A stretch of 64,000 nucleotides of DNA, filler included, from Asterionella formosa (GCA_002256025.1; 24 parts of 24 records of this genome joined end to end with filler, not necessarily neighbours in it), one strand, 5' to 3'. Counted from the first letter of the whole stretch, positions 5,457-62,876 are shown. Notes: generated by a model not told the origin, from the sequence alone. Program-made: numbers and translations.

Positions 5457-5995
5457 GTTGGATGATTTCGCTTGCTTGCAAAAGCGAAACAAAGTGGGGA
5501 CTAATGGTGAGTGGACGCAGAACTGTTTTTCACACCCACCAACACTTAAAATCATTGCCTACGGCACCCTACCGGTAGGAAATTGCCGGAGTCAGCCTCA
5601 AGTAAACAAACAAGAGGTAAGAGGTAAACACTTATTGACTTGATCGACTAAAATGTGTAGATTTAATACCCCCCCGGCCATGAATGATGGCATTAGATGT
5701 ATCATACAGATTAATGTACTACCCTGGTACCTCGTACTAACTGGTACCTTGTACAAGGTACCCGTACAGTGCTCGGGAGTTGATACCCACAAGCGTCATC
5801 CTGCTCTACTTATTAGATCTGGTAATCCTGCATATGACGTGATTAACTGAATGTCCCAAGGTCACACACCCAAGCTCCTTCAGTCCTTTGCGTACAAGTG
5901 CCCTTCCTTTGAGCTACGGACGGACGCAGAATGCGTATGATTTTTTAACGAGGTAGCTACCCCTCATGCAAAAAAACTACGCAGACTACCGTATA

Positions 5996-6078
5996 CTTCA
6001 TTGTCCTGGACCCCCCAATGTACACTGCCGTGACTGAATTTGACTGATTTTACTTAAGGGGGGCCCAGGACAATGAAG
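5996..6078. repeat. 21-bp inverted repeat (hairpin or facing transposon ends)
   Basis: CTTCATTGTCCTGGACCCCCC and GGGGGGCCCAGGACAATGAAG pair with one mismatch. TTAA lies immediately before the G run. Confidence 0.7.
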
Positions 6079-7940
6079 AGATTTCCCTTATAATGGACCT
6101 AAGTAAATTTCTTNNNNNNNNNNNNNNNNNNNNNNNNNNNNNNNNNNNNNNNNNNNNTTAATTAATTAANNNNNNNNNNNNNNNNNNNNNNNNNNNNNNN
6201 NNNNNNNNNNNNNTACAATGATTTCACAATCATCACTGTGCAATGGACTTCGATTTCAAGTTCATCATGAATGAACTCAACCATGACAACAATGAGATTG
6301 GATGAAAAAATTATTTAAATGGATACATAAAATTTATTCATATGTGTATTACTTATGTACAAAATTTTACTTAAGCTAAAATTATGTTGTACTGGTAGCT
6401 ATGTATGTTGGCTACCTCATGTACCCGTAGTTTCAGGATGCACCCAGCCATAAAATAATTTGAGTCGTAACAGGGTAAAATAAGGATGAATGTCAGTTTT
6501 TATGTGGTAGCAGTAGCTTTACTCTACCAGGTAGAGTACAAGGAGGTACCCTGGTACCTAGAAGTTGCGGTAAAACACGTTTTCAACTTAAGAAAAGATT
6601 TAGCTACAGATCTCGATTACCGGACCTTCCTTTAGTCCCAAATCTACACAGGTAAGTATTTACCAATCGAAGATGGCATTCGGAACCCTCGGAATAGGTA
6701 CAATGGGACCACGTACAAAAAAATACAGTCACCCCCATGAGTATGATGTATGTGCAGGATAGCGAGAACTCAAATGAAGTTGGATTGTGCGCAGCGTTGT
6801 CTATCAAGTCGATTCGGGGCACAACAGATCATTTCGCTTCTCTGATTCCTAATCTCCACTGTTGAGGTCATTGTCTCGCTTTCGACGTTTTTTTCAGGAG
6901 AGTATTACAATAGAAAATCCAAACGGAACCAAGTTGTAAAAAGGTTCTAAAATCAATTCGGAACTTCAAAATTGTTTCGGTTCACTGTTCGTGTCTGTCC
7001 TTCCACGGGGTAATGGCGAAGATTTTTACTTTTCAAACTTCAATAGTGATTACCGGTATTTGCCTTTTATAGCAGAATATTCATTTTCGCGTGTGCCGCT
7101 CGCGCCTTTCAACCCTGGACTTGTTTGGATCACCTCATCCCGCCATTTTCCTTGAACTTCACATTGAGTTGTGCATGATTGACGAAGGAAAAAAGTCTGC
7201 TTAGGGTGATCTGTGGTATACCATTTGGCATCATCGCCGAGACGATTCGAATATAAACCTCAAGATTTTCTCGCTGCGTCAAAAGGCTCGTTCAAGGAAG
7301 CCTCACAATATCGACGTTACAATCATCAATCCACGCACCAATATCCATCGTGGCANNNNNNNNNNNNNNNNNNNNNNNNNNNNNNNNNNNNNNNNNNNNT
7401 TAATTAATTAANNNNNNNNNNNNNNNNNNNNNNNNNNNNNNNNNNNNNNNNNNNNTGAATTGGGATGGAAACGAAGATGTCAATTACCAAAAATAGTAAC
7501 AAAGCAGTCTTTACTTGACGTTGACATTGGGCTGTTTCTTCTGCTTCAACGTCAACAAGAGAGGCACTGCTGGCAAGTTCGGAATCAACCACAAGTTCAG
7601 CATTGAATAGTGTTGCAGGTTCCAGCTGGCCTAGTTCACTTCTGAATCTCATGGGTGGCAAAATCATTGTCACCATTCAAAAAGGAATCATGCTGTGGAG
7701 TGATTCTTGATCCCCGTACTGGAAATGCGCCAGGATGTGCCTGTTGTGGTGGTGATGCCACATGGAGCTGTTGATGAGAGTGCTGTGACAAAGATATCAG
7801 AAGAAAGGTTGTCATCTTGAGGCACCTCTGGTATCTCCTGCAAGGTATTGGCTCCCTGGTATTGAAAAAAAAATGGCTGATCTTGCCTCGCCGCCCAAGT
7901 ACCGGTACCTGTTACTCCAAGACTTCTGTACAACGGTGCG

Positions 7941-8032
7941 TACCTGGTACTGGTACCCTGGTACTGGTACCCTGGTACTGGTACCCTGGTACTGGTACCC
8001 TGGTACTGGTACCCTGGTATCTGGTACCAGGT
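7941..8032. repeat. Tandem array of GGTACT/GGTACCCT units
   Basis: tacctggtactggtaccctggtactggtaccctggtact... read directly from the sequence. Confidence 0.9.
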
Positions 8033-8045
8033 AACGGTAAAGCTG

Positions 8046-8597
8046 TGTTGAAATATATGGCGCTACTCTAGCGCGCTCCAGTACTGCCCTGGAATGACCT
8101 AGCTGTGTTGAAATATATAGCGCGCTCCAGTACTGCCCTGGAATGACCGGTCAAGATCTTTCTCACGCCGCTCGTCTGCAGATTCTTCTGCTATATAAAT
8201 CCTGTCTACCTATTTCCGTTTAGACATTCCTCAGACTACCTAGTCTTCGGACACCTGTCGATATCAACAGCCTAACAGACACACTCTGACACCCTCCCCT
8301 GTTGATGCTCGACATACCACATCATCCTAATGTGTATGCTCGACACATCCTTTCCTACAGGATTTCTCATAGTGCCTTCTCGTTTTCTACGTCTCTGTTT
8401 TTCTTTTTCTCTTCTCTTTTCTCTTTCTGTTCTTGCTGATGGACTCGAACTGTCGACCTCTGGTTTTCACGTTCTTCCTCGTACCACTTGTACTAACGAG
8501 CCCGCTACCATGTTGAAATATATGGCGCAACTCTAGCGCGCTCCAGTACTGCCCTGGAATGACCGGTCAAGATCTTTCTCACGCCGCTCGTCTGCAG
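8046..8597 (-). mobile_element. Miniature non-autonomous LTR retroelement (TRIM-like): 5' LTR >8597-8511 (cut by linker), PBS 8510-8498, 219-bp internal region, PPT 8300-8292, 3' LTR 8291-8106, extra partial LTR end 8046-8099
   Basis: Near-identical direct repeats with TG...CA ends. On the minus strand, TGGTAGCGGGCTC follows one LTR directly and AGGGGAGGG directly precedes the other. A diverged solo copy lies at 62877-63073. Confidence 0.8.
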
Positions 8598-8697
8598 NNN
8601 NNNNNNNNNNNNNNNNNNNNNNNNNNNNNNNNNNNNNNNNNTTAATTAATTAANNNNNNNNNNNNNNNNNNNNNNNNNNNNNNNNNNNNNNNNNNNN

Positions 8698-8894
8698 ATC
8701 CAAGGGAAAATGCATTGCTTAGCTGATACTGTCCTAGAAATAGCACCATAAGGCATTTTTCCACCATTGTTAGCCTTCTTAGCTTCTAGCTCCCTAATCA
8801 CATTGTTAAGACAAATCTGAACACTGACCAACTCTTCAGGAGACAATTTCTTTCGAGGCAAGACATTGCCTTGTCGAGGCGCTTTCGAGGTCAT
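8698..8894 (-). CDS. N-terminal fragment of a probable DNA-transposon protein
   Basis: ORF MTSKAPR...NNGGKMPYGAISRTV...FPW runs off the contig. It resembles N-termini of diatom pogo-like transposases (recollection). Confidence 0.3.
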
Positions 8895-11105
8895 GATGTT
8901 GGTATTGTGATGGGTGATGGGTGACTGTTGTGTGTTTGCATTTAATTTTTGTACTCATAATTCGGGCGCGCCAGGAATTCCTATTTGACGTTTTCCATTA
9001 GTGAATTTATCTCTTTATTATGGCGCACGAGCGAAAGCGCAATGACGTCGTAGCCATATTAAATAAATTTTAGAGGATACTAAATTAGTTTTCTAGCGGA
9101 GGAATATTCTCATAGCTGAATACGTATATAAAAGGTGATGCTTGCTCAATCGAGTAAACGTGAAAATATCCAATTTTCGCAATTTCACGTCGACAGCAAC
9201 CTTTGGGCGATAATACCTAATTAACAATGTACACAATGCAACAATACAAGTACGGAAGTATTTACTCGCTATATAAATCTGAACAACTCGTTCGTGACAA
9301 TAAATAGCGTATCTTGTAAAATGAGTTCAAACCGTGCGTTTACTCCGTTTAGCGGTGGCTTACAGTTCAAAAGTGGCCGTAGCGGTGGCTTACAGTTTTT
9401 AAGTGGTACCCTGGTACCGTACCTGCAAGTTGCGGTAATTAGTCTACAATGCTGAAACTAAAAGTTTATCTTTTGTTAGAGCATCGCCACCGCATCAACC
9501 AAATACCAAAGCCAATTGCAGTTGAAAATATAAATACACGTCACTTGGTCGAGAATTTTTTATCAATAGTCGAAATTTTCTTTTTTTTCCCCACCACATC
9601 GACCATAAATCCTATAGGCAGGTACAAGAATTGACGCAAGACAAATTGAAAAATTCAACAGGTCGTGGAAAGCTATGAACTCATCATGCATTGTATATAT
9701 TTGATGATAGTATACACAGGATGTGCCGTATAATGACTGTGTTTAAAACAATGCAAATATTCAACTATAAATACATTTAAACTTACAAATCTTTATATAT
9801 ATGTATACAGCAGCCATGGCTGATCATGTTCCTTATCATGCATACACTTTGCTCCTGAAATGATGGATCATCACATGCACATGATGACACGGAAAACGAA
9901 AGTGACAATACAATACAATGATACTTGCGGCTTAGAAGGAGTCATCATGTTTTCCTTGTCATGCATACAGTTCCTGAAAGGAAGGATCTCAAGCAACACA
10001 TGATGTGAAAAACTGAAGTGACAATACAACACGATGATACACCATGCGGCTAAGAAGGAGTGAATATGATGGAGAAGGGCGGAATCAACAAGCTGTGCAT
10101 AGTATCACAGCATGTCAAGAGCAAATGCCAGGATGATCAATTGTTGGGATTACAAATATGGAATGACTCATCCCCTTTCGGTGATTCAATAGTTCCTTTT
10201 GGATTTGTTGGCCAACCATCAATGTGGACAAAAGATATCGGTAAGTGCTACCATCTTTGGATCAATCCACAACTGTTAGAAAAACTGACACATGTGTGTT
10301 GCTTCTTTCAGGAAAATGGTAGACAAACAGTATTTGTAAGTTACAAACAGCAGCGTTGGAGCCCATCTATTGATCAATTCTTTCTTATTCAATCCTCAAC
10401 TGACACGCACATTATTTTACAGAAATATGTATCAGTTACTTCCTCAATTTGTGGTAAGTGAAGATAGAAGCGAAATGCATGTTGTCGTGTAAGCAAAACA
10501 TGAACAACTAACAATGAATTGCTTCTCTTTGTTAGTATGATTGGGACAACAAAACGGATTAAATAGTAATGGGAAATTGCGTGAATGCAAACTCAGATCC
10601 GTCAGGATTAAAAGGAAAGCAGGGGAACAAGGGCAAGGCAACCAGTACAACAACCTTAAGAATTGGATTGGGGGGAAGGTGGAAGTGAAAGCGGCACCAA
10701 CAATCATTGCGATGAGAGCATTGTAGAACATTCCGTAGCCACTAAAGATATAGAAACATAGAACCATTCTTAAATATAGTTCCAAATTTCGATCCATTTC
10801 ATCCTATTTTAGACGGTGATATCTATGAGAATTACGATCATGCATGTTAAGATAGATGTATGACAAAAGTACACACATCATAGGCCCATGTTTAACTAAT
10901 TATATGATGCAATAGTATCATAATACTTCAAGTTCAGTAAAATATTAATAAATCATCATATTTACAGGATACCTTGATCATAGTTTTGATCGAAAAACTA
11001 TCATATATGTGAAAATCCTGTGCCACTTAGCGTATGATACCCTTGATCATATATGCATGATACTTCTTATTTGCAGACGTTTGAAAAAGAATTTACTCGT
11101 CAGCA

Positions 11106-12177
11106 ATGTTCAGGAGGCGCTTCCGGATGAGACGTTTGTTGTTTGAGAAGATTCTTGATGATTTGGTTGCTTCGGATTCTTAATTTTCTCAGAAAAAGGA
11201 TGCCTTGTTGGGTTCTTTACTGGGATTTTCGCCACACCAAAAACTTACCTCGGCGCTTTGCATGTTAGCCCATGGATCATTGGCTGATCTGTTGGACGAT
11301 TTAACAAGGAGGTCAGAGTCAACAACACTCAACAATTTGCAACACTTCTATATTGCAATAATCAACAGGTATGGGAAAGAGTATCTTAGTGCTCCGACCA
11401 AAGAGGACCTTGAGATGATTCCACGTTTGCATGAAGGAAAGGGTTGGCCGGGGCTTCTTGGTTCATTGGATGTCATGCATTGGGAGTGGAAAAACTGTCC
11501 AAAAGCACACAGAGGAGCATATCAAGGAAAAGAAGGAGTGGCGAGAATTTCTTTGGAAGCTGCGGTTGATTGTAGACTTTGGTTCTGGCATGCATGGTTT
11601 GTTGGAATACCCGGGGCAAACAACGATCTTAATATTTTGGATCGTTCATCGTTTTTCCATGATTTGTCAACTGGAAGGACTCCAAAAGTACAGTTTGCCA
11701 TCAACAACCAACAACACAATCTGGGGTATTATTTGGTTGACGGAATCTACCGAAATTGGCATATATTTGTCAAGACAATTTCAGAGCCACAAAGTCCAAA
11801 ACGGAGTTTTTTCTCGATGCGTCAGGAGCACAGCGCAAGGATGTCAAGCGAGTATTTGGAGTTCTACAGGCCAGGTGGAGTATCCTTGCACTACCATGTA
11901 AACTTTGGTCAGTGGGTGCTATGAACAGTGTAATTATTGCATGCATCATTTTGCACAACATGATCATAGAGGATGAATGGGAAACTGAAATACAAATGAA
12001 TATCTATTTGACAATATTCAGGATGGATTTTTGGTTGACAATGTGAATCATGACAATGTACACACATTTCTTGATTTCAAGAGTATTAGAATGAACTACA
12101 TGAGTGAAGGTGAGCAGCACTTTAAATTGCGTAACAATTTGATTGAGCACTTGTGGATTCAAAACGAAAACAAATAG
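11106..12177 (+). pseudogene. Harbinger DDE transposase (plant transposon protein type), disrupted
   Basis: MFRRRFRMRRLLFEKI, SPHQKLTSALCMLAHG, GWPGLLGSLDVMHWEWKNCP, GANNDLNILDRS, GYYLVDGIY, RKDVKRVFGVLQARW, ACIILHNMIIEDE. In-frame stop near 11181 and frameshifts near 11200, 11825 and 11990. Degenerate 5' part near 10660-10815, with a possible intron 10816-11076. Confidence 0.9.
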
Positions 12178-12288
12178 TAGATAATAACTTGATTCTAGAT
12201 TTATATTTTTAAGTCTGTAAAGTACAAGTTCTAGATTGGCAATAATGAAAGGGTTAGTGTAATGTAATGTCACTATAATCAAACTAGT

Positions 12289-13107
12289 TTAATACTCTAA
12301 TGGTCCAGTCTCTAGAATCGAAACCTCATCATCAGTAGATGATGAATGAGAAGTTGAAATATCGATTTCAACTGAACTGCCTGACTCCAAAGAACCGGTC
12401 TTGGTTTTTTTGCGTGATGGTTTTGAACTATCCTCCATCTCCTCCATAGCTTCTTGAGCCTTCATAGCAAACCAGCTTTTAGCTTCCTCTGAATTAATTT
12501 TAAGAGAGAAAATCTTAAACAAGAATTCTTCACGTTGAGTCTTCACCTTTCTTTCCAACATCTGCACATGTTTTTGTTCAATGACAAGCTGAGCATTTGC
12601 GAGCAGCTTACTATCTTTTGCTGCTTTCGTCCCCATGGGACGCACATCTAGTAACTCAGGACTCTTCTTTGTGATTTGCTGCTGATCTCGGACATATCCA
12701 CACCTACCCTTCGTCCACTTTGGGGCATCCTTCAAAATTCGCCAACACCCTTCGAACAGGAATTCTCTACCCAGTTTCCTTCCTTTTCCCTCTAATTTAA
12801 ATAGCTCCCTGGCTTCTTCAAGGTAGTTGTCGTCTGTCCATCCTGACTTAGCAATGGACGTAACCTGTGAATAGAGGCCGCAAAACTTTTTCACATCTTG
12901 ATTGATTGTTCCCCATCGAGCAGTGCACGCTGTTGAGGTGCGATCCTTCCCATCTGGGATAAGCTCAACATAAATCTCAAATACCCTGCTCCAAAACTTG
13001 CTTGCTTTCTGATCAGTCCCAGTGATTGCGTCTTCACTTGCAGCTACCCAGGCCCGAGAGAGGATTGCTTCCTCCTCTTCCTTCTCCCACATGACACCGG
13101 AACCCAT
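12289..13107 (-). CDS. Harbinger ORF2, Myb/SANT-like (NAM-associated domain) DNA-binding protein
   Basis: WEKEEEEAILSRAWVAASEDAITGTDQKASKFWSRV, F.FEGCWRILKDAPKW, RPMGTKAAK. Convergent with the transposase inside the TIRs. Confidence 0.85.
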   Translation of the reverse strand: MGSGVMWEKEEEEAILSRAWVAASEDAITGTDQKASKFWSRVFEIYVELIPDGKDRTSTACTARWGTINQDVKKFCGLYSQVTSIAKSGWTDDNYLEEARELFKLEGKGRKLGREFLFEGCWRILKDAPKWTKGRCGYVRDQQQITKKSPELLDVRPMGTKAAKDSKLLANAQLVIEQKHVQMLERKVKTQREEFLFKIFSLKINSEEAKSWFAMKAQEAMEEMEDSSKPSRKKTKTGSLESGSSVEIDISTSHSSSTDDEVSILETGPLEY

Positions 13108-14169
13108 CCTGACAATGATGATTGTTGTTTTATGATGTTGACTCAATATGATGTATGCACCACACCAAGATCACATTGGCCTATAGAGTTCTACATGAAA
13201 AGACTATTGTGAATGTACTGAAATTATGTATGCACTCATTAAACTATAAACATTAGGTTGCCAGTGCGAGCCACAATCAAAACCAATAGAAATGCTCCTT
13301 TTATTTGGCTACGGTCGGAATCTAATCGACCAAATACCTGATATTTGGTCGATAAGGGGGTCATCCTCGATCAAGACCAAAGCATATTTGATCTTGGTCG
13401 ATGCGGTGGCTAAAATATTTTTGCTTTTTCGACCAACACAACGCATTATGACGTGTAATGACCCGCAACTTCAATTGGCTTGGTATTTGGTCGATGCGGT
13501 GGCGACGCTCTTATGTCCCATAATAAATTGTTTGTTCAAGCAAAATGACCGCAACTTGCCTGGTACTCCTACCAGGTAGCTGGTAGGAGTACCAGCTAAG
13601 TAGTAATTATAGACGAAGGAAACAGGGGATGTGCACGAAGCGCGCATTGAAACGGCAGAAAAACAGGCCCATGGGAGCCAATTAAAAAATACATGGCATA
13701 AATTGAAGAAGAGGTTCGAAAGCAAGCAAGCGACATGTAAAACACGCAAGAAGGTCATGGAAGAGTCGATCTGCCAGAGAACGACCATGCAGAGGGTCCA
13801 AGGCAGAAAGCTCACAATTCTGCGAATTAGCTTTCCACAAAAGCAAATTGTTGATCACCAATCTGCAAATTTATAGTCTTGAGATAAAAATTCACCCACC
13901 CAAACTCCCACCCACATCTAATGTGCAAAAATCGACTGCAGCTATGTGAAACCCAGAGGAAAAGAACTACCCAAGCTACCACCATAGCCAAATTCAAAAA
14001 CCAACTTCGAGTCTAGATAACAAGTTGGTGCAACAAATCAACCTCAACAAAGAATCAAAAGAGGAATAAAGGAACATTTGCAGAAAAGGCAGTCGAATGA
14101 GTTGGTAATTGAGTTAAAGTTCATTCGATATCATGGTTGTTAATGGTTCTATGTACATGATGTGGGATA

Positions 14170-16051: not shown

Positions 16052-16918
16052 TATGTTTAATTATGCCTTGGATATAGTGTCAAAGTCTCGACTTCGACAG
16101 TGATGACGGTCGATTAATCGACAGATGGAACGAAAGAAGGCACGAAAGCAAATATCTGTGATGCTGACATACAAACCTGAAAAGTGGACTGAATGTATTT
16201 ATGTATTTATACCGGATACCGGTATGTCCAGCCGTATTCATTTGTGTATGCATCAATCCATATACCTGTACGAATATGTACGGGTATTCATCATGTATGT
16301 ACCAAGCAATGTACCAGGTACCAGGTACCAATATGCAAGTGGTGCACCTAAGATAGATATGATATACCAGAAAGCAATGAACTGATAAAACGATGACGCC
16401 TACATACGGTACCAAAAAGATGATTGCTTTGTTACGTTGCTGTTACTACGCACATTTGCCTACAGCCATACCAGGTACCTGGTAACCAAATGTAGCATCA
16501 TGGGTTTAGTAGCTCCTCAAGCATGTTCTAGTACGTAAGTACAAGAGTACCTGGTACCAGAATAAAATTGCACAATACATGTACCGTCACAAATGTATCA
16601 GGTAGTCTACTCCCTCTGTCAGGTTGGAGTACCGGTATGCATTTACAAAATACTCGTTTGTCAGCAATCTCAAAACAAACATCGCTCGTCATGGGCAATT
16701 TAAAAGATACACCGGAGGGGTTGATGGCGTGAAGTTCCTTCCCTCTGTTTAGGGAATTAAGACGAGTACATGTTATTTTTGAATATAGTTTGTATTCTTT
16801 TCAATTCACCAGGAACTTTCACATCATTTCACACATTATAGCTATTATACATGATGATTGTATTAGAGGCCGGACCACTTCAACTTTAGTACATGCCGGT
16901 CAATATATAGCAACTCCT

Positions 16919-18043: not shown

Positions 18044-19117
18044 GGGTTGGATTCTGGGAATTTCGGGCAATATGTGATGAATGATAGTTGTTTATTATTT
18101 GTTGTCTTTTCTGTTCCACAGTGCTTCTTTATTACTCCTACACCGGTATCGGTAATTTTTGGAGGAGTATCAGGCCCCTGTACCAGGGTACCACTACCTG
18201 GTACCTACTTGTATATTATTTACCGTGATGTCTGTTTTTGGATTCTTGAAATGTGATGCAGTGGCAGGTGTTTTTACATACTGGTATGTAGTGTATTGTG
18301 CCGACGAAGTGGTGACGTAAGCAAACGCAGTGCTGTTTTGTGACAAAAGCAATTCACACCAGCCAATCATGTAGCGTATGGTACTCCAAAGTACCTGATA
18401 GTCTAGTAGATTACAACTAGCAGAGTACTAGGTACCTGGTACCTGGTACCAGGAACCAGGTCACCGCATGATACGATGTGTCGATGGACACGTCATACGA
18501 ATGGCTACATTCCTACCGGTACCTGTTACTGGTGCACGGATACCGGTACCTGTAGACTAGCTAGATCTACGCACGGTTACTTATTTTACTGTGTTTAGTG
18601 TTCACATGTTTACGGACGATAATGAACAATCATCAACATGCCATAATCAAGGCTGTGCATGATAATCACGGCATATGTGTACCTAAATATATAAATCAAT
18701 ATACATGAATTGATGTGCATTTGATTTGTAATTACTCCCTGATATAAATATTTGATATCAAGAAAATTGATATGTGAATAAACCAAAAATGTATATTTAT
18801 ATCTGTCCTTACATGAATAAATATATGGACAGTTGTAATGATATAGCAATTTCTTGTGCGGGTATCTTAGTGTCATGGGTGTTCAGAGGACGTACGGTAA
18901 TTTCATTGAACAGCCAGCCACCACGACAACAAAGACAAACCTCAGATCTCATAAATGATCAAGACAGGAGGAGCCAAACTACAACAAGTCACAAATTTCC
19001 GTACTGATTCCTTAGTGGCAAACAAAACTATTGCCATCAACGTCAACATATACATTCAGTAACTGTCAACGCACAGAGCAGCACTGTAACTCCACAATCG
19101 GTCATCTCAGAGACTTC

Positions 19118-21960: not shown

Positions 21961-22055
21961 TCAGAAAGTTGCGGTAGTTTTGTTGAACCGTAGATTTAGC
22001 TCACTTTATCCCAGATTAATTTGTTGATTTAAGCAAAATGACCACAACTTGCAGG
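21961..22055. mobile_element. Intact ~95-bp MITE of the CCNGCAAGTTGCGG family
   Basis: TA|TCAGAAAGTTGCGGTAGTTTTG...CTTTATCCCAGATTAA...AAGCAAAATGACCACAACTTGCAGG|TA. Aligns with the reverse complement of 42270-42369. Confidence 0.8.
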
Positions 22056-39424: not shown

Positions 39425-40767
39425 CCTGCAAGTTGTGGTCATTTTGCCAAAAATGGAATGCGGCGCCATCAAGCACTCATGCATATTCGACTCCCCGGTA
39501 ATATTACTTAGAAATTTAGAAATTTCTAACGGTTTCGCGCTGGCCAATCAATTTCATTATTATCAGAATCTAATTTTGAAGAAAATTTTTCTGAAAAAAC
39601 CAGTTTCCAAACTTTGACGATTGGGGGGTTTTCGATTGGGGTTTTTCCCCCAAATCACAATTTTGAGTTTCAAGATTCCTTGTTCCAGAAATCTCCTATT
39701 TTATATGCATTTATCTCCCAGTATGAATGTACAGAAGTGCAAACAGCTGTGGTAAATATCGGTATGCATTATACATATGAGTACGACGTAGTACATACAT
39801 CATGCATCCCTGTAACATACCGGTATCAACTACCGATTCATACTGGTACTGGAATACCACACCCTGGTACAATTCAATTTATGTCAGTATACAATATGGT
39901 TTTTTGTAGCTCTACATTCTACAAGCATGTGCCGGTATGTTCTTGGAACATGATGTTTGCCGGTTTGGTACCGGTAGTAGTGGCAACATCATGACAATGA
40001 TGATACGCCTATTGTAAACAGATCAATCACGAATTATAAACCAATTGTTGTTTTCAGCTACTAATATTATAGTATATGTCTACTTGATGTACAATGGTTT
40101 TTGTTCCGGCAAGAAACAATGGAGATATTGTCATTGTGGTTGAACGCCATGTTGCTTCCACCGATTTTCTTTTTTAGCTATTTCGCAATGAATATCAAAG
40201 CTACGTGTTCGTTTCATTCACTACTTGGCTGCTAGCAACACGTGTATTCTATCTAAGCAACTAATAAAAGAGTTAAGCAGTTGTATAAAATCGAAAATTA
40301 ATAATCATTTTATCAAGGGTTGTTATCATGATGGTAATGGAAAATTTCTCATGTTCGATTCTTGAGCGATTGTATAGTAGTTATTTGTAGGCAGAGAGCA
40401 GCATATATATTGTACATATACCAGTATGTGAATGTACCGCTATATGTATTCCCGTACTTGTGCACTTATTGGCAGGGGTCAACAATCATGTTCTCTCTTT
40501 GATCCCTATCCTGTGCCTGCATCTGACCCCAACACAATCTAACATACCGGTAAACCCCCCCTAACTTTTTGGATTGGGGGAATGAGTTTGATCCTAAAAT
40601 CCTAAAATAGTTCCTGCCAAACCCCTAGCATAATAGTATTCAAAACGATCATGCCATGAATGAAAGATAACTGGTATCCGAACTAGCCAGATTATTTATT
40701 CTAGTATTGGATCTGCAGGCGTGTATATCCAAATCGTCATTTCGGAAATTTTACCGCAATTTGCTGG
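39425..40767. mobile_element. Possible 1.3-kb non-autonomous element bounded by CCNGCAAGTTG-type ends
   Basis: TA|CCTGCAAGTTGTGGTCATTTTGCC at left and TTTTACCGCAATTTGCTGG|TA at right. Encloses the repeat shared with 14170-14620. The two ends could belong to separate copies. Confidence 0.5.
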
Positions 40768-42269: not shown

Positions 42270-42369
42270 CCTGGCAAGTTGCGGTCATTTTGCTTAAACT
42301 GACATTTTAATCTGGGATAAAGATGGCTAAATCTTTAGTTTCAGCAAAATTACCGCAACCTTGCTCTGG
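42270..42369. mobile_element. Intact ~100-bp MITE of the CCNGCAAGTTGCGG family
   Basis: TA|CCTGGCAAGTTGCGGTCATTTTGCTTAAAC...GTTTCAGCAAAATTACCGCAACCTTGCTCTGG|TA, ~30-bp TIRs. Confidence 0.85.
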
Positions 42370-42592
42370 TACATTTGTGCCTGGGATTAACAAAATTGGA
42401 ACATCCTTATTGTTGTAGATGACATGACCGATAGAACAAGACGTATGACTAACCCCGATGCACGCATTCACAAAGGATGTAGTAAAACGAAAAAATATTT
42501 TGAGTTTAGTCCTCACAGAATTCAATTTGGTTATGTTGTTTGACAAAACATCTAGCCAGCTTACAGAAGCAAAGTAGCAGAAAGCTTATACC

Positions 42593-44424: not shown

Positions 44425-45386
44425 AATTATACTCTGTATTGAGAAACACCAGGCAATTTAGGGTCATTGCATATAACATAATTGACGTCCATATAAGTAA
44501 AGAGCACATTCTTCAATCCTAGCCTGAAGTTTAGTAGCTTCAATTTTCCTCACTGGTTTAGTTTTGCTGATTCAATAATAAAGTGCCAATACTTCATGGT
44601 ACTATACCAATGTAGAAGATAGCTTTGATGTAACAAAGAAAGCAATTTGCTCCAGTTGCAACAAATGCTTCAATGCGTATGATTTTCCCTCTCATTATAC
44701 AAATGGGATAAGTCTGAGGACTAACAATGGGTGTGTGAAATCATTGATGTTGAAGCTGCTCTTCTTAATGGAAGAGTGAACCTACATTGAATGGCCAGAT
44801 GGGGCTTTAGAGTTTGGTTTCAAAACACAAAAAACAATGAAACAAATGCATTAGGTTGGAGAAGGCCATGTATAGCACAGTTTAAGCAGCGCTACAATTC
44901 TTCAAGAAAATGGTTCAAAACCTAACCAAAGTTTGATTACAGCAAAGCAAAGAAGATGCCAGTGTATTCTTCAGCAAGGAAAACAATGCACTAATCCTAA
45001 GAAATGCTAAGGGTAAATTTTTGTTGGATTAACAAAGTTGAAATGATTGATTTGTCTCAAATGATTCAATAGATCATCTTGCATTTGGTGGGAAACCACT
45101 GATATGGACAAAAGACATTTGGTAGGTGCTTTCACAACTGATAGAACATAGCTGACACATGCATATTGTTTCTTTCAGGATACTAATGGAAAACAAACCG
45201 CATTTTTAAGTTATAAACGCCAGTGTTGGAACAATATTGATGATTTCTTGTGTGATAATCAATTGACACATTTATTTCAGAAAAGTTCGAAAATACATTG
45301 ATAAGTAGTAAACTAACAATATAGAAACAGAAGTACTTGTTGCGGCGTAAACAAGCAATACATAACCAACAACTTGCTGCTTATCA

Positions 45387-47232
45387 TCGTCACAATGATT
45401 GGGAGAGCAAAACGAACATTAAATGGATCAGCATCTCCTTTGGTAGGACCAAAAAACGAGCAAGAAAATGTAAACCAGCGCAAGAGCTGAGAGGAGACAT
45501 ATGTAAAACCGGAAAAAAGGACAAAGAAATAAACAGTGATATGAGGAGAAAGTAGAACATGGTAGATGAGTGATTGGCAAACAATTACTTTCCAAGTTGA
45601 GTGACAATGAGGACCATAGGTTTATCTGCAATCGCCGTGAGAAGTGGATGTGGAAGGATACATGTGAAATTCCTAGGTATAGTGATGATAAAATATATGG
45701 AATCCAATAAGTGGAGGATCAATATTTTTAGTGATTAGAAGCCAAGACATGCGACAATTATTGACAAATGAATTGAGATGCTTACTTATTGACAAATGAA
45801 AAAGATACTCATTTATTGTCAAATGAATATGCTTACTTATTGTCAAAAAACTAACAACATATTGACGAGATTAAGGAAAGTGTGAGATGTCTTTTCAGGA
45901 TTACATGAGTAATCAGGCAAGAACAAGACTAGAGATACGATTAACAGATAGCTCACAATATTACAAAGTGTAAAGTAAAAATACGTTTCCAGCTTTAGTG
46001 ATCTTAAATGTAAGATCAGTGACATTTCAACCAGACAAATTATCATAGTGATGCAATTCGCAGACACCATGTGCATATTTTATTCAGTACTTTGTACGCT
46101 ACGGCATCTACTCCGTAGTATTCTTGATGTGGAGTTGGTTTGATTACAACACCTTTGGTACCTGGTACTATCTGGTAGTGAATAATTGCATCAGCAGTTC
46201 CTGCTCCAGCTATCGTCTTGCCACTAGCTAGGGTACCTCCAAGTATATTTGTAGCGATAGTATCTACATTTCACATGCAGTGTTTCACTGTTATACTCAC
46301 CGATCCGCTCGTCACAATGATTGGGAGAGCAAAACGAACATTAAATGGATCAGCATCTCCTTTGGTAGGACCAAAAAACGAGCAAGAAAATGTAAACCAG
46401 CGCAAGAGCTGAGAGGAGACATATGTAAAACCGGAAAAAAGGACAAAGAAATAAACAGTGATATGAGGAGAAAGTAGAACATGGTAGATGAGTGATTGGC
46501 AAACAATTACTTTCCAAGTTGAGTGACAATGAGGACCATAGGTTTATCTGCAATCGCCGTGAGAAGTGGATGTGGAAGGATACATGTGAAATTCCTAGGT
46601 ATAGTGATGATAAAATATATGGAATCCAATAAGTGGAGGATCAATATTTTTAGTGATTAGAAGCCAAGACATGCGACAATTATTGACAAATGAATTGAGA
46701 TGCTTACTTATTGACAAATGAAAAAGATACTCATTTATTGTCAAATGAATATGCTTACTTATTGTCAAAAAACTAACAACATATTGACGAGATTAAGGAA
46801 AGTGTGAGATGTCTTTTCAGGATTACATGAGTAATCAGGCAAGAACAAGACTAGAGATACGATTAACAGATAGCTCACAATATTACAAAGTGTAAAGTAA
46901 AAATACGTTTCCAGCTTTAGTGATCTTAAATGTAAGATCAGTGACATTTCAACCAGACAAATTATCATAGTGATGCAATTCGCAGACACCATGTGCATAT
47001 TTTATTCAGTACTTTGTACGCTACGGCATCTACTCCGTAGTATTCTTGATGTGGAGTTGGTTTGATTACAACACCTTTGGTACCTGGTACTATCTGGTAG
47101 TGAATAATTGCATCAGCAGTTCCTGCTCCAGCTATCATCTTGCCACTAGCTAGGGTACCTCCAAGTATATTTGTAGCGATAGTATCTACATTTCACATGC
47201 AGTGTTTCACTGTTATACTCACCGATCCGCTC
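45387..47232 (+). repeat. Head-to-tail duplication, 922-bp period
   Basis: Copies 45387-46310 and 46309-47232 share a TC at the junction. The only difference I saw is G46215/A47137. The ORF track is duplicated at a +922 offset. Confidence 0.95.
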
Positions 47233-48129
47233 TACATAACATAACAAGCAGCAGATGATTGAAATGAGAGAAAAGTCAAAAGTTCCCTGTTGCAAGCCCA
47301 AATTGAGCAGCTGCAGGCAGGATAGAGTGATAATTATGATAGTGAGGACGAAATCGGGAATTCGTAAAATCAATAAATATGTGAAGCAAATAATTTAACA
47401 TACTAGTCTAGTAAAGATAATACCAACAAGTCTACAGCATGTATATTGTAACAATGTGTTCAAATTAATTGTTAAAGTTTAGCTAAACCCATGCTTGGTT
47501 GTTTTGAGTACCACGTACATATGTAGGTTAGATGACTAGAATAACAGTTAGGTATGGATGATGCAACTATTTGAATCCCTCGAGAAGACTAGCAATACAA
47601 CAACCAACCACATCTGTTAGACAACGAATCGCTACTGGCGTCATCACGGAACTGCTTTCGCTTCAAACCGGTCATGATGGACGACGATTGGCATGGCGAA
47701 AGGTGAATTGCCAGAGTCTACTTTTCAGGAGACAAACAAAAATGAGGTGAATTCTAGAAAATAAATTATTAGAATCTGTATAGTATATAAAATGGTTTCC
47801 TTAAGTAGATCCCTTGCCGATTTCGGCAATCCCAGGGCTGGAAAACCGAGGGGCAATTGGTGTCTGTTGTCTTGCCAAAATGCGAACATATGAAATATAN
47901 NNNNNNNNNNNNNNNNNNNNNNNNNNNNNNNNNNNNNNNNNNNTTAATTAATTAANNNNNNNNNNNNNNNNNNNNNNNNNNNNNNNNNNNNNNNNNNNNA
48001 AGACTACAGATCCAAGCCAACTGATGAAGCCCCTTCAGGCGAAAAGTAACATTAGTCTCATTACTTTTTGGCAACTTAAGTAGTCACCTCATCGTCGCTT
48101 GGATAATAGTCATTGTAGCCCTCACCTCT

Positions 48130-48149
48130 ACCCTAACCCTAACCCTAAC
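48130..48149. repeat. Short interstitial telomere-type repeat (CCCTAA)3
   Basis: accctaaccctaaccctaac read directly. Confidence 0.6.
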
Positions 48150-48238
48150 AGTAGAATCTTGGCACACAACACACATAGTTAGGTGCTATCATTCAGGTTA
48201 TGATTGTCAAAGGCAATTATCATTTGAGGTGATTCACA

Positions 48239-48756: not shown

Positions 48757-48758
48757 TA

Positions 48759-49240: not shown

Positions 49241-50139
49241 TCACTGGCACACTTCCCACAGAGATTGGACTCTTGACAAGTCTCACTTCTCTATATTTGG
49301 ACAACAATGAATTCACAGGAACAGTGCCAGCTGAGATATTTCCTGGACTTCAGACAAGTCTCATTCACTTAACATTGGGGAAAAATTCATTCAAAGGTTC
49401 AGTTCCCAACTCATTTGCGTTTAATTTCAAACAGAGTCTGAAGGAAAATCCCATACCTTTCCTGCTCAACGTTTGTGTCTGCATGATCTGCATGATTATT
49501 GCTGAAGCAGGAGGTATCACTACGATTCTGTCTGCAATGAAGACTCATTCCTCAAATGCTACTGTGCAAGAAAAAGGTTGTGGAGCACTTATGAACTTGG
49601 CTTTGAATGACAAGAATAAGGTGACAATTGCTGAAGCAGGAGGTATTACTACGATTCTGTCTGCAATGAAGACTCATTCCTCAAATGCTACTGTGCAATA
49701 CTATGGTTGTTGGGCACTTGCGAACTTGGCTGTGAATGACAACAACAAGGTGATGATTGCTGAAGCAGGAGGTATCATTACGATTCTTTCTGCAATGAAG
49801 ACTCATTCCTCCAATGCTAATGTACAATATCAAGGTAATTCAGCATTTTGGAACTTGGCTGACAATAATGAAAACAACAAGGTGATTATTGCTGAAGCAG
49901 GAGGTATTCCAACAATTCTTTCTGCGATGAGGACTCATTCCTCAAATGCTACTGTTCAAGAATATGGTTGTGGAGCACTTTGGAAGTTGGCTTTGAATAA
50001 TGACAACAACAATGTGACAATATCCAATGCTGGTGGAAAAGCCCTAATTGAGTCTGCTATGAAAAATTACTCATCCAATGATGGTGTTCAAGAAAAAGGT
50101 AATGGAGCACTTCGCAATTTGACCCATTGTTGGAAATGA
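49241..50139 (+). CDS. LRR plus armadillo-repeat protein, 5' partial
   Basis: TGTLPTEIGLLTSLTSLYLDNNEFTGTVP (LRR), then ~5 ARM repeats IAEAGGITTILSAMKTHSSNATVQ..GC.AL.NLA with DNA periods of 129, 129 and 132 bp. Confidence 0.8.
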
Positions 50140-53699: not shown

Positions 53700-53799
53700 G
53701 AATCAATTTGGAATTGGAATCACTATTGCCAGCATGATGACGTATGTAGCACTAAAGTTTGGATACTGCTCGTTTAGCAAAATTACCGCAACTTGCCGG
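53700..53799 (-). mobile_element. Single CCGGCAAGTTGCGG end of a longer subfamily; related copy at ~26700-26790
   Basis: AGCAAAATTACCGCAACTTGCCGG|TA. Internal GGCAATA.TGATTCCAATTCCAAATTGAT is shared with 26761-26789. Confidence 0.65.
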
Positions 53800-54200
53800 T
53801 AAGCTGAGTACCAGGTACCTGGTACCTGGTACAACCATCTTGCTTCATGTGCATATTTTTATGCATCATCACGCACATCCCGGACTTTCTACGACTAATC
53901 AGAGTTGATTTTTCAACCAAAAAGGGAGTACAAAATCAACCGTCAATGCAACCGGGTTGATTTTTTCTTTGTTGTACAATACTGTATTTTCTCGTGATCT
54001 AGTACGGAAAAATACCGTCAAGGTATTTTACCATCCGCAGTAGAACGATACTTGAGGCCTACAGAAAAATACAACCTGGGTTGATTTTTACAAGTAATAC
54101 NNNNNNNNNNNNNNNNNNNNNNNNNNNNNNNNNNNNNNNNNNNNTTAATTAATTAANNNNNNNNNNNNNNNNNNNNNNNNNNNNNNNNNNNNNNNNNNNN

Positions 54201-54260
54201 CTAACCCTAACCCTAACCCTAACCCTAACCCTAACCCTAACCCTAACCCTAACCCTAACC
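54201..54260. repeat. Telomeric repeat (CCCTAA)10 at contig start
   Basis: Perfect CTAACC x10, C-rich strand at the 5' end, as expected for a left chromosome end. Confidence 0.9.
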
Positions 54261-54269
54261 CTTGGCAGC

Positions 54270-55440: not shown

Positions 55441-56030
55441 CACTGTATAATACTATCATATTAACTGTTGACTTTAACAGTATATATTAAACGACAAACA
55501 TATATATTAATTAACATACTTTATGATTGCTTGATTTATATTCTGTGATGTATCGATAACACTTGCGTACATATTTTATCGAATTTTATTGTCATTGTAC
55601 TATTTTTACATGATCATATTTTGATCAAAATTATATCATATTTATTTCATAAAATCATCATAATTTTAGGATCAATGTATCATACCTATGTGATGTACTT
55701 TATTCAATATTACGTATCATACTTTGGTGATGTATGCATCGATGTAACCTTATCATGATATCACAGTATCATCTTGTCAATCATGATGAGATGATTGGGA
55801 AGCAACTGTATTCTGCATCGTGCTACAGGGTATATTATTATATCACGCAATTTAGTAGCGAAGTCACTCCGCCTGTAATGTACAAAAGTCGACAGTGCAC
55901 ATACTCACATGCTAATCAGGTTTGAGGAAACGGACAGTGGTTCCAACGAGCGAATAATGATACCAAGAGTACCAATTTTTCCAGCGAAAGAACTTGTCTC
56001 TCTATTGATGAGGATGACATGGACACCGAC
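55441..56030 (+). repeat. AT-rich dispersed repeat; inverted second copy at ~60575-61184
   Basis: Colinear over ~590 bp from CACTGTATAATACTATC to GAGGATGACA.GGACACCGAC. Short related motifs at 2697-2834 and 10970-11010. Confidence 0.9.
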
Positions 56031-57816: not shown

Positions 57817-57916
57817 NNNNNNNNNNNNNNNNNNNNNNNNNNNNNNNNNNNNNNNNNNNNTTAATTAATTAANNNNNNNNNNNNNNNNNNNNNNNNNNNN
57901 NNNNNNNNNNNNNNNN

Positions 57917-58330: not shown

Positions 58331-58731
58331 CTGTTTTGCGGTTTGGTTTCCGATCAGCGCTATGATCACGGTTCTAATACTATATCGCAAAACACAAGGC
58401 ACTGAAGGGAAGCAAAGGGAACCAACCGAGCGCAATCAACATGGTGATGGTTGTAACAACAAGAGATTCATCGCACAAAATATTTAGCTATATTTTTAGA
58501 AATAATGGTTTGTACCAGGCCTGCTAGAGCTACTATACCGGTATGTTCTTCGATCATGCACCCAGCCATATGTATATAAAGCAAGGAGCGAAATAATACG
58601 TAATGCATGGGAATACCACCAGTAGTTTGTACTTTTTCCCACGGACATGGTATCTGATGATACCTGGTACCAGGTACCTGGTACCCTCGTACCTGGTACC
58701 GGCACAGGACCAGGCGTCTGGTGCCTGGTTA

Positions 58732-58806
58732 CCAGCAAGTTGCGGTAATTGTGCTGAAACTAAAACTTTAGCAATCTTTATCCTACATTCAACCAACTTG
58801 CAAAGG
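58732..58806. mobile_element. Internally deleted MITE of the CCNGCAAGTTGCGG family
   Basis: TA|CCAGCAAGTTGCGGTAATTGTGCTGAAACTAAAACTTTAGCAATCTTTATCC...CAACTTGCAAAGG|TA. Confidence 0.75.
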
Positions 58807-59340
58807 TACCAACTACCGGTACACTATACTTACTAACAGGTAACACTGCCTAGCACCAGATGTGACAACGTGGGCGGTACTTTTTCAACTGATTATTTTC
58901 AACCAGAGGCGTACCTGGTACCGGTAGTCTGGGACAAGTGCAAGGAGGTAATTCGCTCAGTTTGGATATGTTCATTTGATTTTAGATTACAAAGTGCATG
59001 CACGAATACAGCATCTCATATGAGGCTACTCTATGGCCTTGTTTTCCAACTTTTNNNNNNNNNNNNNNNNNNNNNNNNNNNNNNNNNNNNNNNNNNNNTT
59101 AATTAATTAANNNNNNNNNNNNNNNNNNNNNNNNNNNNNNNNNNNNNNNNNNNNGGTACCGGGTACCAGGGTACCAATACTCTCTTTTGTTCCCCTCATG
59201 CTGCTGCCTCGTTCAGCCTTGCTTCTGTCGACGGCGAGGAGCGATGCAAGCGAATATCATAAGAGTATTGACAAGCGTTTCTCCCCCTTGTCGTTCCATA
59301 GTGCCTTCCCTCCATCTCTAACTCCAACTGTCGTGTCAGC

Positions 59341-59859
59341 ATGTCGGCATCCGACGAGGCGTACATCAAAACGGCCACTCACGTCTTCGTATCCCGCCAA
59401 GCTACCATTGACAATCCAAATCAAGTCCAACTTCAGGGAAAGTCAGTCTTACGCGAAGGCGTTTCCCTTCTGGGCAGTATACGCATGGGCCGCTATTGTT
59501 ATATTGGTGAACATACCGTCCTATCATCACCTATGCATCAAAACTTTGGAGTTCCCCTGGTGGTTCGTGGCCACGTTCAAATTGGCAAGCATTGTGTCAT
59601 TGAAGCTGCATCGATTGGCTCGAACGTTTGGATTGGGGATGGATGCAAGATCGGCAAGCGATGTTTGATTAAAGACAATTGCTGGCTGGCATCGGGGACG
59701 GAAATAGGAGACGATACTGTCATTGCTCCCTTTTCGAGAGTCGCTGGAGCTCCTGGTAAAGTTGTTGCGGAACTTCCACCATCCGCTGCTACTGACCTGC
59801 AAGAGCTTGCGCAGCAGGCCTTTCAGAAATTTGCGACGAACCCAGTGTCCTCACAATGA
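59341..59859 (+). CDS. DCTN5: Dynactin subunit 5 (p25), left-handed beta-helix
   Basis: YIKTAT..FVSRQA, GKSVL, IRMGRYC, IGKHCVIEAASIGSNVWIG, IGKRCLIKD, VIAPFS..AGAPG..VAELP. Confidence 0.88.
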   Translation: MSASDEAYIKTATHVFVSRQATIDNPNQVQLQGKSVLREGVSLLGSIRMGRYCYIGEHTVLSSPMHQNFGVPLVVRGHVQIGKHCVIEAASIGSNVWIGDGCKIGKRCLIKDNCWLASGTEIGDDTVIAPFSRVAGAPGKVVAELPPSAATDLQELAQQAFQKFATNPVSSQ

Positions 59860-61320
59860 ATATCATATCAGCCCTGGAAGAATGTTTGTTGTTTGTGAAG
59901 AAACGACGGAACAAAAAAAAGCAAGGTTGACAATCAGAGAAATGCTGTTCGAGTCAATGCCATGGAAATTTTCTCTCAAACATTCACTCGGTTTCACAGA
60001 TCCAGCACAAGTGCATCGCACCCCTAATTTTAAGAATGACAAGTATCATTCCATTGTTGCAAGACTTGGCAGGGTATTTACAACTTTGCACAGAACTTCC
60101 GTGGTCACTGTCATCCATTGTTGTGTTTGTTTTCCTTACTTTTTACTACCAGTACGACAGTTGAGGCATTGTGGTTCATGGACCTTGCTCGCTAGCCTCT
60201 TACAGTTTTATATTTAGGACAAATGTTTACGAGTAGTGCACACTGTTGCATGGTATAAGTAGATCACTTCGTAGCTAGACTTGGATCTATGANNNNNNNN
60301 NNNNNNNNNNNNNNNNNNNNNNNNNNNNNNNNNNNNTTAATTAATTAANNNNNNNNNNNNNNNNNNNNNNNNNNNNNNNNNNNNNNNNNNNNATCGTCAT
60401 TTGCTTGTTGGAATTGTCCGTTGCCTCAAACTTGCTTGGCGTGTGCGTGCACACACTGTCGACTTGTTTTCAATGGTACGTTGTTCTTTGTATTCACTGT
60501 TGAACTTGTCTGCATCTTTTTTACCATCAATAGAGCAACAAGTGGGTCTCTTCATTGTTGTTTGCTCCTGAAAAAGTCGGTGTCCGTGTCCGTGTCATCC
60601 TCATCAATAGAGAGACAAGTTCTTTCGTTGGAAAAATTGGCACCGTATCATCATTCGCTCGTTGGAACCACTGTCCATTGCCTCAAACCTGATTAGCGTT
60701 TGAGTACCGGTACCCGGTATGTGCACTGTCGACTTTAGTACATTACAGGCGGAGTGACTGCGCTACTAAATTGCGTGATATAATAATATACCCTGTAGCA
60801 CGATGCAGAATACAGTTGCTTCCCAATCATCTCATCATGATTGATAAGATGATACTGTGAGATCATGATAAGGTTACAGCGATGCATACATCACCGAAGT
60901 ATGATACGTAATATTGAATAATGTACATCACAGAGCTATGATACATTGATCCTAAAATTATGATGATTTTATAAAATGTTTATGATATAATTTTGATCAA
61001 AATATGATCATGTAAAAATAGTACAATGACAATAAAATACGATAAAATATGTACGCAAGTGTTATCGATACATCACAGAATATAAATCAAGCAATCATAC
61101 ATAAAGTATGTTAATTAATATATGTGTTTGTCGTTTAATGTATACAGTTAAAGTCAACAGTTAATATGATAGTATTATACAGTGGATAGGATCTAAGTAT
61201 ACGGATGCGTTGATATGTACATCACTATAATATGATTTGTGATATGGATTGATGCATATCACATACCGGTATCCTCAACAACCAGCCATCACGTTCATTG
61301 TCGTGTCGTCTTTCCTTGTT

Positions 61321-61530
61321 TTAGCTATATATATGCTCAGATCCGTTCTTCCATTGCAAATCTTCCTTCAAAAGGTCAAACTCGTCATCCTTGAGCATTT
61401 GCATTCCAGTGGCATCGTAGGACTGAAGCGCGTCCAGAAAGATACGCTCCTTTTCGGCTACTGTGAGACGAATGAGTTCCCCACTTTCCGGATCGACGAC
61501 ACAGTATTCCTCGTCAGGACTACTTTCGTT
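61321..61530 (-). pseudogene. PGRL1: PGRL1 (PGR5-like 1) fragment, prematurely terminated
   Basis: Manual translation: NESSPDEEYCVVDPESGELIRLTVAEKERIFLDALQSYDATGMQMLKDDEFDLLKEDLQWKNGSEHIYS*. Not in the ORF track. Confidence 0.75.
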
Positions 61531-62876
61531 NNNNNNNNNNNNNNNNNNNNNNNNNNNNNNNNNNNNNNNNNNNNTTAATTAATTAANNNNNNNNNNNNNN
61601 NNNNNNNNNNNNNNNNNNNNNNNNNNNNNNTTTGTCACTATAACTAGCTACATACCTTGGTTGCAGGAACAACTGGAGGTGTTGGAGCCTTGGTAGCCTG
61701 AGGGGAAAGGATCAAATTGTAAAAGTTAGTGAATGTACAACAGTAGCCAGCATTGTACTCGTTTGCATGACTTTGCTGCCGGTTTTGTAGGTTTTGTATT
61801 CTTAGTCACCGCTCTACAACATACCTTGAGGACTCTTTTTTGCTGTCAGGTTTCAGATGAAGGAGAAGTAAAATAGATTCAAAATGTAAGTAAAACGTAT
61901 ACCACAAAATCCTCGAAAGTAGCGGTTTGATGCTCCTCGACCGAACTTTTTACTCTCCGCCACTGATTGATTCAGTGCAGGCAGATGCAAACGCATGCAT
62001 CATCCCGGTTTTTGGCGTACCTCTGAGGTTATGGTAGAGTCTGCCATGGTCGAGTGGAAGACTGCAGCAAGCAAGAGAAGAGAACGAATGGCCTTCATGT
62101 TGATGAGTGAGAAACCGAGTATAATGATGGTCAATTTTGAGTTTTATGAACCACCTTGTGATATGAAACGTTTGGAACCGATTGGCCAATAGTCTTATGA
62201 ATGATGATCGAGTACCGGTAATTTTGTTCAATGCGAACCTTATGACTTATTTCCGAGTACCGGTAATTTTGTTCAATGCGAAACGACCATAATGTTCCTT
62301 TTGTCATCAACACAATAACATCATGTGGACGACATTAATTAATTCTCGTGCTTAATGTCTCGTGCAGTCATATGTGTACATAGATGAATCTTATGCAGTC
62401 ATACACATCTGCAAGTTACGGTAATCGTGCTAAATTTAGTAGTTTAGTTCTCTTTTCTCGATATTAAATTGTTTTTTTAAGCCAAATGACTGTAACATGC
62501 AGGTGTACCACATTAAGTCAGCAGTCAGTAATTCAAAGTCAGAAGTCCGGGATTTCATTTCAGCAGTGAGCAAAGAAGTTTGCAGTCAGCGGTTGTTTCA
62601 AATTTTCAGCGAATCAAGTCAGCAGTCAGCGAAACGAAGTCCATAGTCCTTAGTTGGCAAGTTGAAGTCATCATTTTTACGATAGTACATTGTGGTAGTA
62701 ATATGAAGAAGTAGATAGCAATGTTATTTTTCAGGCATTAATGTCTATTTTACTGTTTTTTATGTTCGNNNNNNNNNNNNNNNNNNNNNNNNNNNNNNNN
62801 NNNNNNNNNNNNTTAATTAATTAANNNNNNNNNNNNNNNNNNNNNNNNNNNNNNNNNNNNNNNNNNNNAACATGAG

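Follow-up and report, generated by a model that had tools for sequence, protein, structure and literature searches.

Palindromic micro-insertions at TA sites and a probably CWG-duplicating PIF/Harbinger family targeting them in non-coding DNA of the diatom Asterionella formosa

Short palindromes of the type TA-CC(N)GG-TA abound in the non-coding DNA of the freshwater diatom Asterionella formosa (GCA_002256025.1). We analyzed them in a stretch of 64,000 nucleotides, filler included, which is called the window in the following, together with a miniature inverted-repeat transposable element (MITE) family residing among them. On balance we lean towards the explanation that two overlapping processes are involved, namely micro-insertions at TA sites, which are likely scars, and the activity of a transposon family of the PIF/Harbinger superfamily (PHIS) that duplicates CWG (W, A or T) and targets the center of the palindromes. 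According to this explanation, units of CCGGTA or CC(A/T)GGTA would be inserted repeatedly at TA sites of non-coding DNA with duplication of TA alone, giving rise to TA-CC(N)GG-TA. New units would preferentially be placed beside old ones and be copied by slippage, resulting in GGTACC-rich arrays. The units themselves would have been left behind on excision by a cut-and-paste element duplicating TA, none of which is visible in the window or in 28 additional loci. The PHIS family, strongly preferring the CWG center of GTAC-CWG-GTAC, would land in the palindromes, and excision of its MITEs would be precise.

The window is composed of 24 contigs, of which two measure 18.3 kb and 22 approximately 1.14 kb and which are connected by linkers of the form N44-TTAATTAATTAA-N44. 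It contains long intronless genes including those for a mitochondrial carrier, an aspartate aminotransferase and a glutathione S-transferase; the best named relatives of the aminotransferase are diatom proteins (65-72% identity), pointing to a diatom source. Contigs with DNA nearly identical to the window are present in many freshwater metagenome runs. When metagenomes were scanned for the inverted-end pattern of the MITEs, 28 loci were obtained (designated by L and a number), several of which are allelic to each other or to contigs of the window, while the open reading frame (ORF) of the mitochondrial carrier, used as query in a metagenome scan, revealed no relative. Copies of the MITE family within the window are named A to F.

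Within the window, TACCGGTA was counted 32 times, TACCTGGTA 16 times, TACCAGGTA 12 times, TACCCTGGTA nine times and TACCAGGGTA three times, the overall motif density being about 1.2 per kb. In 100 dinucleotide-preserving shuffles, TACCGGTA occurred on average 0.27 times and TACCWGGTA, which was observed 28 times, 0.34 times; none of the shuffles reached 32 or 28, respectively. Ranking of k-mers by an order-3 Markov model placed the palindrome words and GGTACC at the top of the over-represented sequences, beside telomere repeats. Among the 16 possible words consisting of a 4-nt palindrome between two TAs, TACCGGTA alone was enriched, the other 15 being present zero to four times each. Stop-to-stop ORFs of at least 150 aa make up 22,643 of the 61,976 non-N bases (36.5%). 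They contain 6 of 77 motifs (N = 0-2), none of the six lying within a Pfam-matched gene. The enrichment of the palindromes and their bias towards non-coding DNA are real and far above chance. The original prediction, made from this DNA alone, had described the palindromes as recurrent and as scarce in coding sequences, and motifs were indeed found at, or no more than 2 nt away from, the places it had listed. No account of such palindromes, of footprint arrays or of GGTACC repeats in diatoms was found in the non-subscription literature covered.

As judged from aligned paralogs and alleles, the motifs arise as discrete insertions of CC(N)GGTA at TA with duplication of TA alone. At 60705-60719 the window exhibits 13 extra bases compared to a 92%-identical copy at 55441-56030, in which a plain TA is located at this position. 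Four informative differences were detected between the alleles L009, L017 and L027. They comprise a 13-nt double unit within a MITE copy at TTA/AAC, the presence or absence of CCGGTA at GAGAGTA/TCATC, the insertion of CCGGTA at two different TAs of one underlying stretch depending on the allele, and a further unit with variants. The occurrence of CCGGTA at different TAs in different alleles establishes insertion as the direction of the change, and the cases at TTA/AAC and GCATA/TTT, in which TA alone is duplicated, exclude a duplication of 3 bp. In L018, two CCTGGTA units enclose an additional CCAGGTA, which differs from both and hence was not copied from a neighboring unit. L019, which is allelic to the window (97% identity), possesses one CCAGGTA unit more than the window array at 53809-53831. 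Five non-redundant comparisons were evaluated (the window pair, L009/L017, L019/window, L005/L018 and L010/L025), while 13 other pairs were left out as they represented the same loci again or were merely 88% alike. Out of 16 gap runs of at least 4 nt, 10 were discrete insertions of CC(N)GGTA at TA, i.e., short inserts bounded by the duplicated dinucleotide which were present in one allele or paralog and absent from the other. The remaining runs were ordinary tandem duplications or unrelated. The idea that the palindromes originate from insertion at TA rather than from substitution, and that the units stack into arrays, was thus corroborated by both paralogs and alleles.

Adjacent W units within the arrays were identical 20 times and different eight times. 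Together with an array of perfect 14-bp tandem units at 7943-8012 (Table 1), this excess of like neighbors indicates that slippage adds to the growth of the arrays. Some arrays contain variant units in which GGTACC is replaced by GGTGCC or GGCGCC (e.g., CCAGGCGCC... in L005 at 1158-1201, in the window at 58698-58731 and in L001 at about 850-890); they look like mutated or variant units. The like neighbors, the perfect array, whole-unit allele differences inside arrays and the intergenic position of the motifs, divergent promoters included, would also be compatible with an origin without any transposon, be it microsatellite-like slippage or recombination of GGTACCW, selection of protein-binding sites in promoters or TA-specific repair of breaks. 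We regard such an origin as unlikely, however. Slippage cannot account for a first unit at a plain TA or for units at two different TAs in two alleles, and it does not explain the inserted unit of L018. Furthermore, no other word of the TA-(4-nt palindrome)-TA type besides TACCGGTA is enriched, and the flanks of isolated TACCGGTA motifs, in whose logo no target consensus stood out clearly outside TA, hardly differ from the background that TA sites show in general, as expected for insertion but not for a longer selected site.

The second process concerns the MITE family. In the original prediction its members were thought to end with TA/CCNG...CNGG/TA and to reside in motif clusters. The copies exist, can be read in this way and do lie in clusters, but the boundary drawn there is not that of the element, and the bases taken for tips are direct rather than inverted repeats. 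Eleven complete copies at distinct loci were available. In seven of them the flanking trinucleotides are identical and in direct orientation (CTG/CTG in A, C, D, L005, L012 and L015; CAG/CAG in B), whereas in F, L001 and L009 they are degenerate or deviate at one base, and in L002 they are inverted. Read along the element, W is represented by T in three copies and by A in six. The fact that W varies between copies and agrees within a copy points to a target duplication and not to an inverted tip. We also inspected 36 distinct ends, which remained from 57 after removal of allelic duplicates; four loci not looking like diatom DNA were dropped. The trinucleotide abutting CAAGTTGCGG showed C at 26, W at 29 and G at 33 ends. 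Outside of CWG, T was found at 16 and A at 22 ends, each fewer than two thirds, and L002, L014, L022 and window position 62412 are examples of ends without TA at the expected place. Hence, the obligatory TA abutting the inverted ends of Tc1/mariner and Stowaway elements is missing in this family. TAC-CWG adjoins 15 of the 36 ends, against a share of 4.3% among the CWG trinucleotides of the whole window. These alignments strongly suggest that the target duplication of the family is CWG and not TA, in disagreement with the termini and the duplication on which the original prediction had been built, an outcome that the prediction itself had named as speaking against it.

With CWG as the duplicated target, the empty site would read GTAC-CWG-GTAC, i.e., it would be a TACCWGGTA palindrome, and targeting of its center would produce both the apparent TA/CCNG...CNGG/TA ends and the position of the copies inside motif clusters. 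Three other duplications were considered for the MITEs and rejected: 2 bp (TA), since a TA is not required at the ends and CWG is repeated directly; 3 bp (GTA), which would result in asymmetric ends; and 4 bp (GTAC), with which copies F and L009 are at odds and which would require inverted tips.

An element of 4.1 kb at 9426-13558 is the autonomous-type, but dead, partner of the MITE family and is assigned to the PIF/Harbinger superfamily by its predicted protein. Its inverted ends (CAAGTTGCGGT... and ...ACCGCAACTTG) are common to this master element and the MITEs, and an 88-bp MITE matches the left end of the element with one half and its right end with the other. On the left side it is preceded by CTG (9423-9425) and on the right side followed by one extra C and CTG (13560-13562), all inside GTAC...GTAC. 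The transposase pseudogene of the element can be aligned with 90% identity to residues 65-422 of P0121, an intact relative of 422 aa with 75 member sequences that carries PF04827 and PF13359; the first 64 residues are unmatched. The reading frame is disrupted by one in-frame stop near 11181 and by two frameshifts, close to 11828 and to 11988. Behind both 11827 and 11987, a single additional base is found in most other copies of the metagenome runs, and adding the one at the first frameshift (11827) gave a frame of 287 aa. For the second ORF of the element (293 aa), the only Pfam match was a weak one to PF14303 (E=0.0017, below the curated cut-off), and none of the Myb/SANT models matched; in a feature similarity search, 28 out of 30 hits were plant NAM-associated clusters (score 0.94), which gives a lead only. 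In all four metagenome runs examined the summed contig depth over 8698-13585, which comprises the element and the DNA to its left, was hundreds of times the depth of the neighboring genes. This value does not represent a copy number but shows that the species contains these sequences in highly repeated form. Directly after the right end of the element, at 13554-13601, lies a near-perfect palindrome of 48 bp (GGTACTCCTACCAGGTAGCTGGTAGGAGTACC-like). A second transposase was not found in the region 43700-47899. Contrary to the statement that no autonomous partner is visible in the window, a pseudogene of a DDE transposase is therefore flanked there by the same inverted ends, though it is of the PIF/Harbinger type.

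The original prediction had taken the MITEs themselves for the donor of the palindromes, i.e., for a Tc1/mariner-like family with CCNG...CNGG tips which duplicates TA, leaves TA-CC(N)GG-TA upon excision and builds arrays by reinsertion. Most copies can in fact be read as TA CC N G...C N GG TA, the MITEs are located in arrays, and the micro-insertions do duplicate TA. Nevertheless, this proposal is very improbable. The transposase of the partner belongs to PF04827, the supposed tips are direct in 7 of the 11 copies and inverted in one, W differs between copies yet is concordant within a copy, and the TA is missing at many of the 36 ends. According to the alignments, the palindromes are the insertion sites of the MITE family, and no observation shows that they are its products.

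A different possibility is that the PHIS family generates the palindromes by a non-canonical route, for example by imprecise repair around its CWG duplication, with varying centers (CWG, CCWG, WG, CG) as a result, or by carrying along flanking bases, and thereby creates its own landing pads. The spacers between neighboring GTAC sequences are CWG in 17 cases, CCTG/CAGG in nine, TG in five and CG in three and thus correspond to CWG plus or minus one base, leaving room for imprecise repair at the CWG of a MITE that alters the centers of units. Moreover, the ACCWGGT core is shared with the target of the zebrafish element Harbinger3_DR, which according to PMC3016246 integrates into the palindrome AAACACCWGGTCTTT, and the target preference may therefore predate the abundance of the motif. 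We nonetheless judge this route to be quite unlikely. New units appear at plain TA without CWG and with a 2-bp duplication, which is not expected from a 3-bp staggered cut, and TACCWGCWGGTA, the scar with doubled CWG, does not occur a single time. For mPing, a related Tourist element, precise repair is described in PMC4561436.

Returning to the two-process explanation, the likeliest origin of the micro-insertions, inferred with moderate strength, is scars of a TA-duplicating transposon. Excision of Tc1/mariner and Stowaway elements usually leaves behind a small duplication together with short end sequences, as stated in PMC4561436, and the micro-insertions resemble such footprints in consisting of a few fixed bases bounded by duplicated TA. 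They differ from them in that no matching donor was found, and in their density, their stacking into arrays and their division into two flank classes. In the 89 kb of window and loci, the inserted bases do not correspond to the terminal bases of any TA-flanked element, and the sole family with such apparent tips very probably duplicates CWG. Scars of a TA-element accordingly rank first among the sources, followed by the non-canonical PHIS route and the transposon-free origin, and the MITEs as donor come last.

Several observations weigh against the two-process explanation. A search of the 89 kb of window and loci for TA-flanked elements with CC...GG tips (14-nt arms) returned only self-matches of arrays and copy C. 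In the window (56 ORFs and other scanned ORFs), Pfam models revealed no transposase of the Tc1/mariner or pogo type. It would also be a striking coincidence if an unrelated process made exactly the target core of a zebrafish transposon group. Furthermore, the motif classes differ, as determined after 11 loci had been dropped which did not look like diatom DNA or were allelic duplicates. Motifs of the CCGG type are isolated in 43 of 54 cases and have flanks that match the general background of TA sites, while those of the CCWGG type are clustered in 63 of 87 cases, their isolated copies being flanked by G...C on 35 of 48 sides; a single source for both may perhaps be insufficient. With regard to the CWG duplication, the sample of complete copies is small (n=11), and in three of the seven concordant copies (A, D and L012) one or two extra bases lie between the inverted end and CWG. 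Allele pairs with a filled and an empty or scarred MITE site did not occur among the window and the loci, and both the CWG duplication and the scar origin were accordingly arrived at indirectly. Finally, among Pfam families the transposase is most similar to the plant PIF type (PF04827). More tentatively than for the two processes as such, we suggest that the scars of the unseen TA-element, about one per kb of non-coding DNA, might form a niche for the CWG-duplicating Harbinger family, which would have specialized in their centers as safe landing pads, and that scars, slippage and targeted MITEs might jointly build the GGTACC-rich tracts.

Among known repeats, HIP1 of cyanobacteria is a palindromic octamer which is far over-represented genome-wide, also within genes. 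HIP1 is not known to originate by insertion at a dinucleotide. The diatom motif differs from it in being eukaryotic, in being nearly confined to non-coding DNA and in arising as an indel. Tourist MITEs with their partners Ping, Pong and PIF (e.g., mPing) belong to the same superfamily as the diatom family, whose MITE is likewise a deletion derivative that has kept both ends of a two-ORF master. PIF prefers an extended palindromic target. The Tourist/PIF elements duplicate TWA and not CWG, and their landing sites are no hyper-abundant palindrome. According to PMC4482050, the PHIS groups differ in their target duplications (TWA, AT, none, ANT, CWG and C/TNA/G), the CWG group being NuwaI, which has two ORFs and is placed there mainly in animals. 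The diatom family resembles NuwaI as described in that source by its PIF/Harbinger-type DDE transposase accompanied by a second ORF, by its short inverted ends and by the CWG duplication, for which the 11 complete copies gave seven identical, three near-identical and one inverted pair of flanks, no empty site being seen. Likewise, an extended palindromic target with an ACCWGGT core is common to Harbinger3_DR, as far as its target is given in PMC3016246, and to the diatom family, whose consensus is GTAC-CWG-GTAC. Unlike both systems, the diatom family resides in a diatom host, has GTAC...GTAC as outer flanks of its target, and uses as target a repeat that is about 100-fold over-represented and derived from insertions.

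The coordinates of the palindrome arrays and clusters, of the 4.1-kb element and of the MITE copies are compiled in Table 1. A degenerate older MITE end lies immediately to the left of copy D, and an ORF of copy C (39530-39991) did not match any Pfam family.

Table 1. Palindrome arrays and clusters, PIF/Harbinger-type element and MITE copies in the window
Feature	Position	Strand	Remarks
Motif array	7941..8033		Five perfect 14-bp tandem units (7943-8012); slippage-type expansion
Autonomous-type PHIS element, decayed	9426..13558	+	Inverted ends; PF04827
Transposase pseudogene	11091..12174	+	PF04827, E=5.9e-53, continued in another frame, E=6e-19; PF13359, E=9e-4
Second ORF, open, 293 aa, putative accessory DNA-binding protein of plant PIF type	12292..13170	-	Leads only
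Intergenic motif cluster, 7 motifs	16217..16637		Between two minus-strand genes
Motif cluster, 6 motifs	18181..18548		Divergent promoter region of mitochondrial carrier and aspartate aminotransferase
Copy B, 87-bp MITE	21965..22051	+	CAG (21962-21964) / CAG (22052-22054), inside GTAT...GTAT
Copy C, 1.3-kb non-autonomous relative	39429..40763	+	CTG (39426-39428) / CTG (40764-40766), inside GTAC...GTAC
Copy D, 92-bp MITE	42274..42365	+	CTG (42271-42273) / CTG (42366-42368), inside GTAC...GTAC
Copy E, right end	53750..53795	+	Followed by CCG, then GTAA and CCWGG array 53809-53831
Mixed-unit arrays (CCTGG, CCAGG, CCTGG, CCCTCG, CCTGG, CCGG...)	58661..58926		Flanking copy F on both sides
Copy F, short MITE, degenerate right end	58736..58800	+	CAG (58733-58735) / CAAAG (58801-58805), between arrays
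Two stacked micro-insertions, TA-CCGG-TA-CCCGG-TA	60705..60719		92%-identical copy (55441-56030) reads ...CACA TA CTCA...

Some further features of the window were recorded. A tandem duplication of 924 bp (45387-46310 and 46309-47232; 99.9% identity) carries the same TACCTGGTA site in both copies, at 46159 and 47081. Repeats of the telomere type (CCCTAA) are present at 54201-54266 and 48121-48150, position 54201 being the start of a contig, and the ORF following the repeats at 54201 exhibited a weak match to RVT_2 (copia-type reverse transcriptase, E=5.9e-4). Members of a dispersed repeat family (TAGCGCGCTCCAGTACTGCCCTGGAATGACC...) were found at 8046-8208, 8511-8597 and 62879-63073 as well as in L005, L018 and L027, with identities of 82-96%. 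An ORF of 389 aa at 42578-43744 (+) contains about six Gln/Gly-rich repeats of approximately 24 aa (GGWGQVQQQQ-like) and did not match any Pfam family, while the sequence at 49243-50136 (+) encodes a fragment of a protein with leucine-rich and armadillo repeats that shows repeats of 129-132 bp at the DNA level.

If the two-process explanation is true, the indels and the promoter-region sequence of a common freshwater diatom would to a major extent stem from one stereotyped micro-insertion, and a eukaryotic highly iterated palindrome would be at hand whose origin by insertion can be traced. For annotation, if the MITEs were filed as Stowaway-like elements that duplicate TA, their classification would be wrong and their boundaries would be off by three to four bases. 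The family itself would represent a CWG-duplicating Harbinger-type lineage outside animals, and its unusually sharp palindromic target of 11 bp would be of possible interest for site-directed transposon tools in diatoms.

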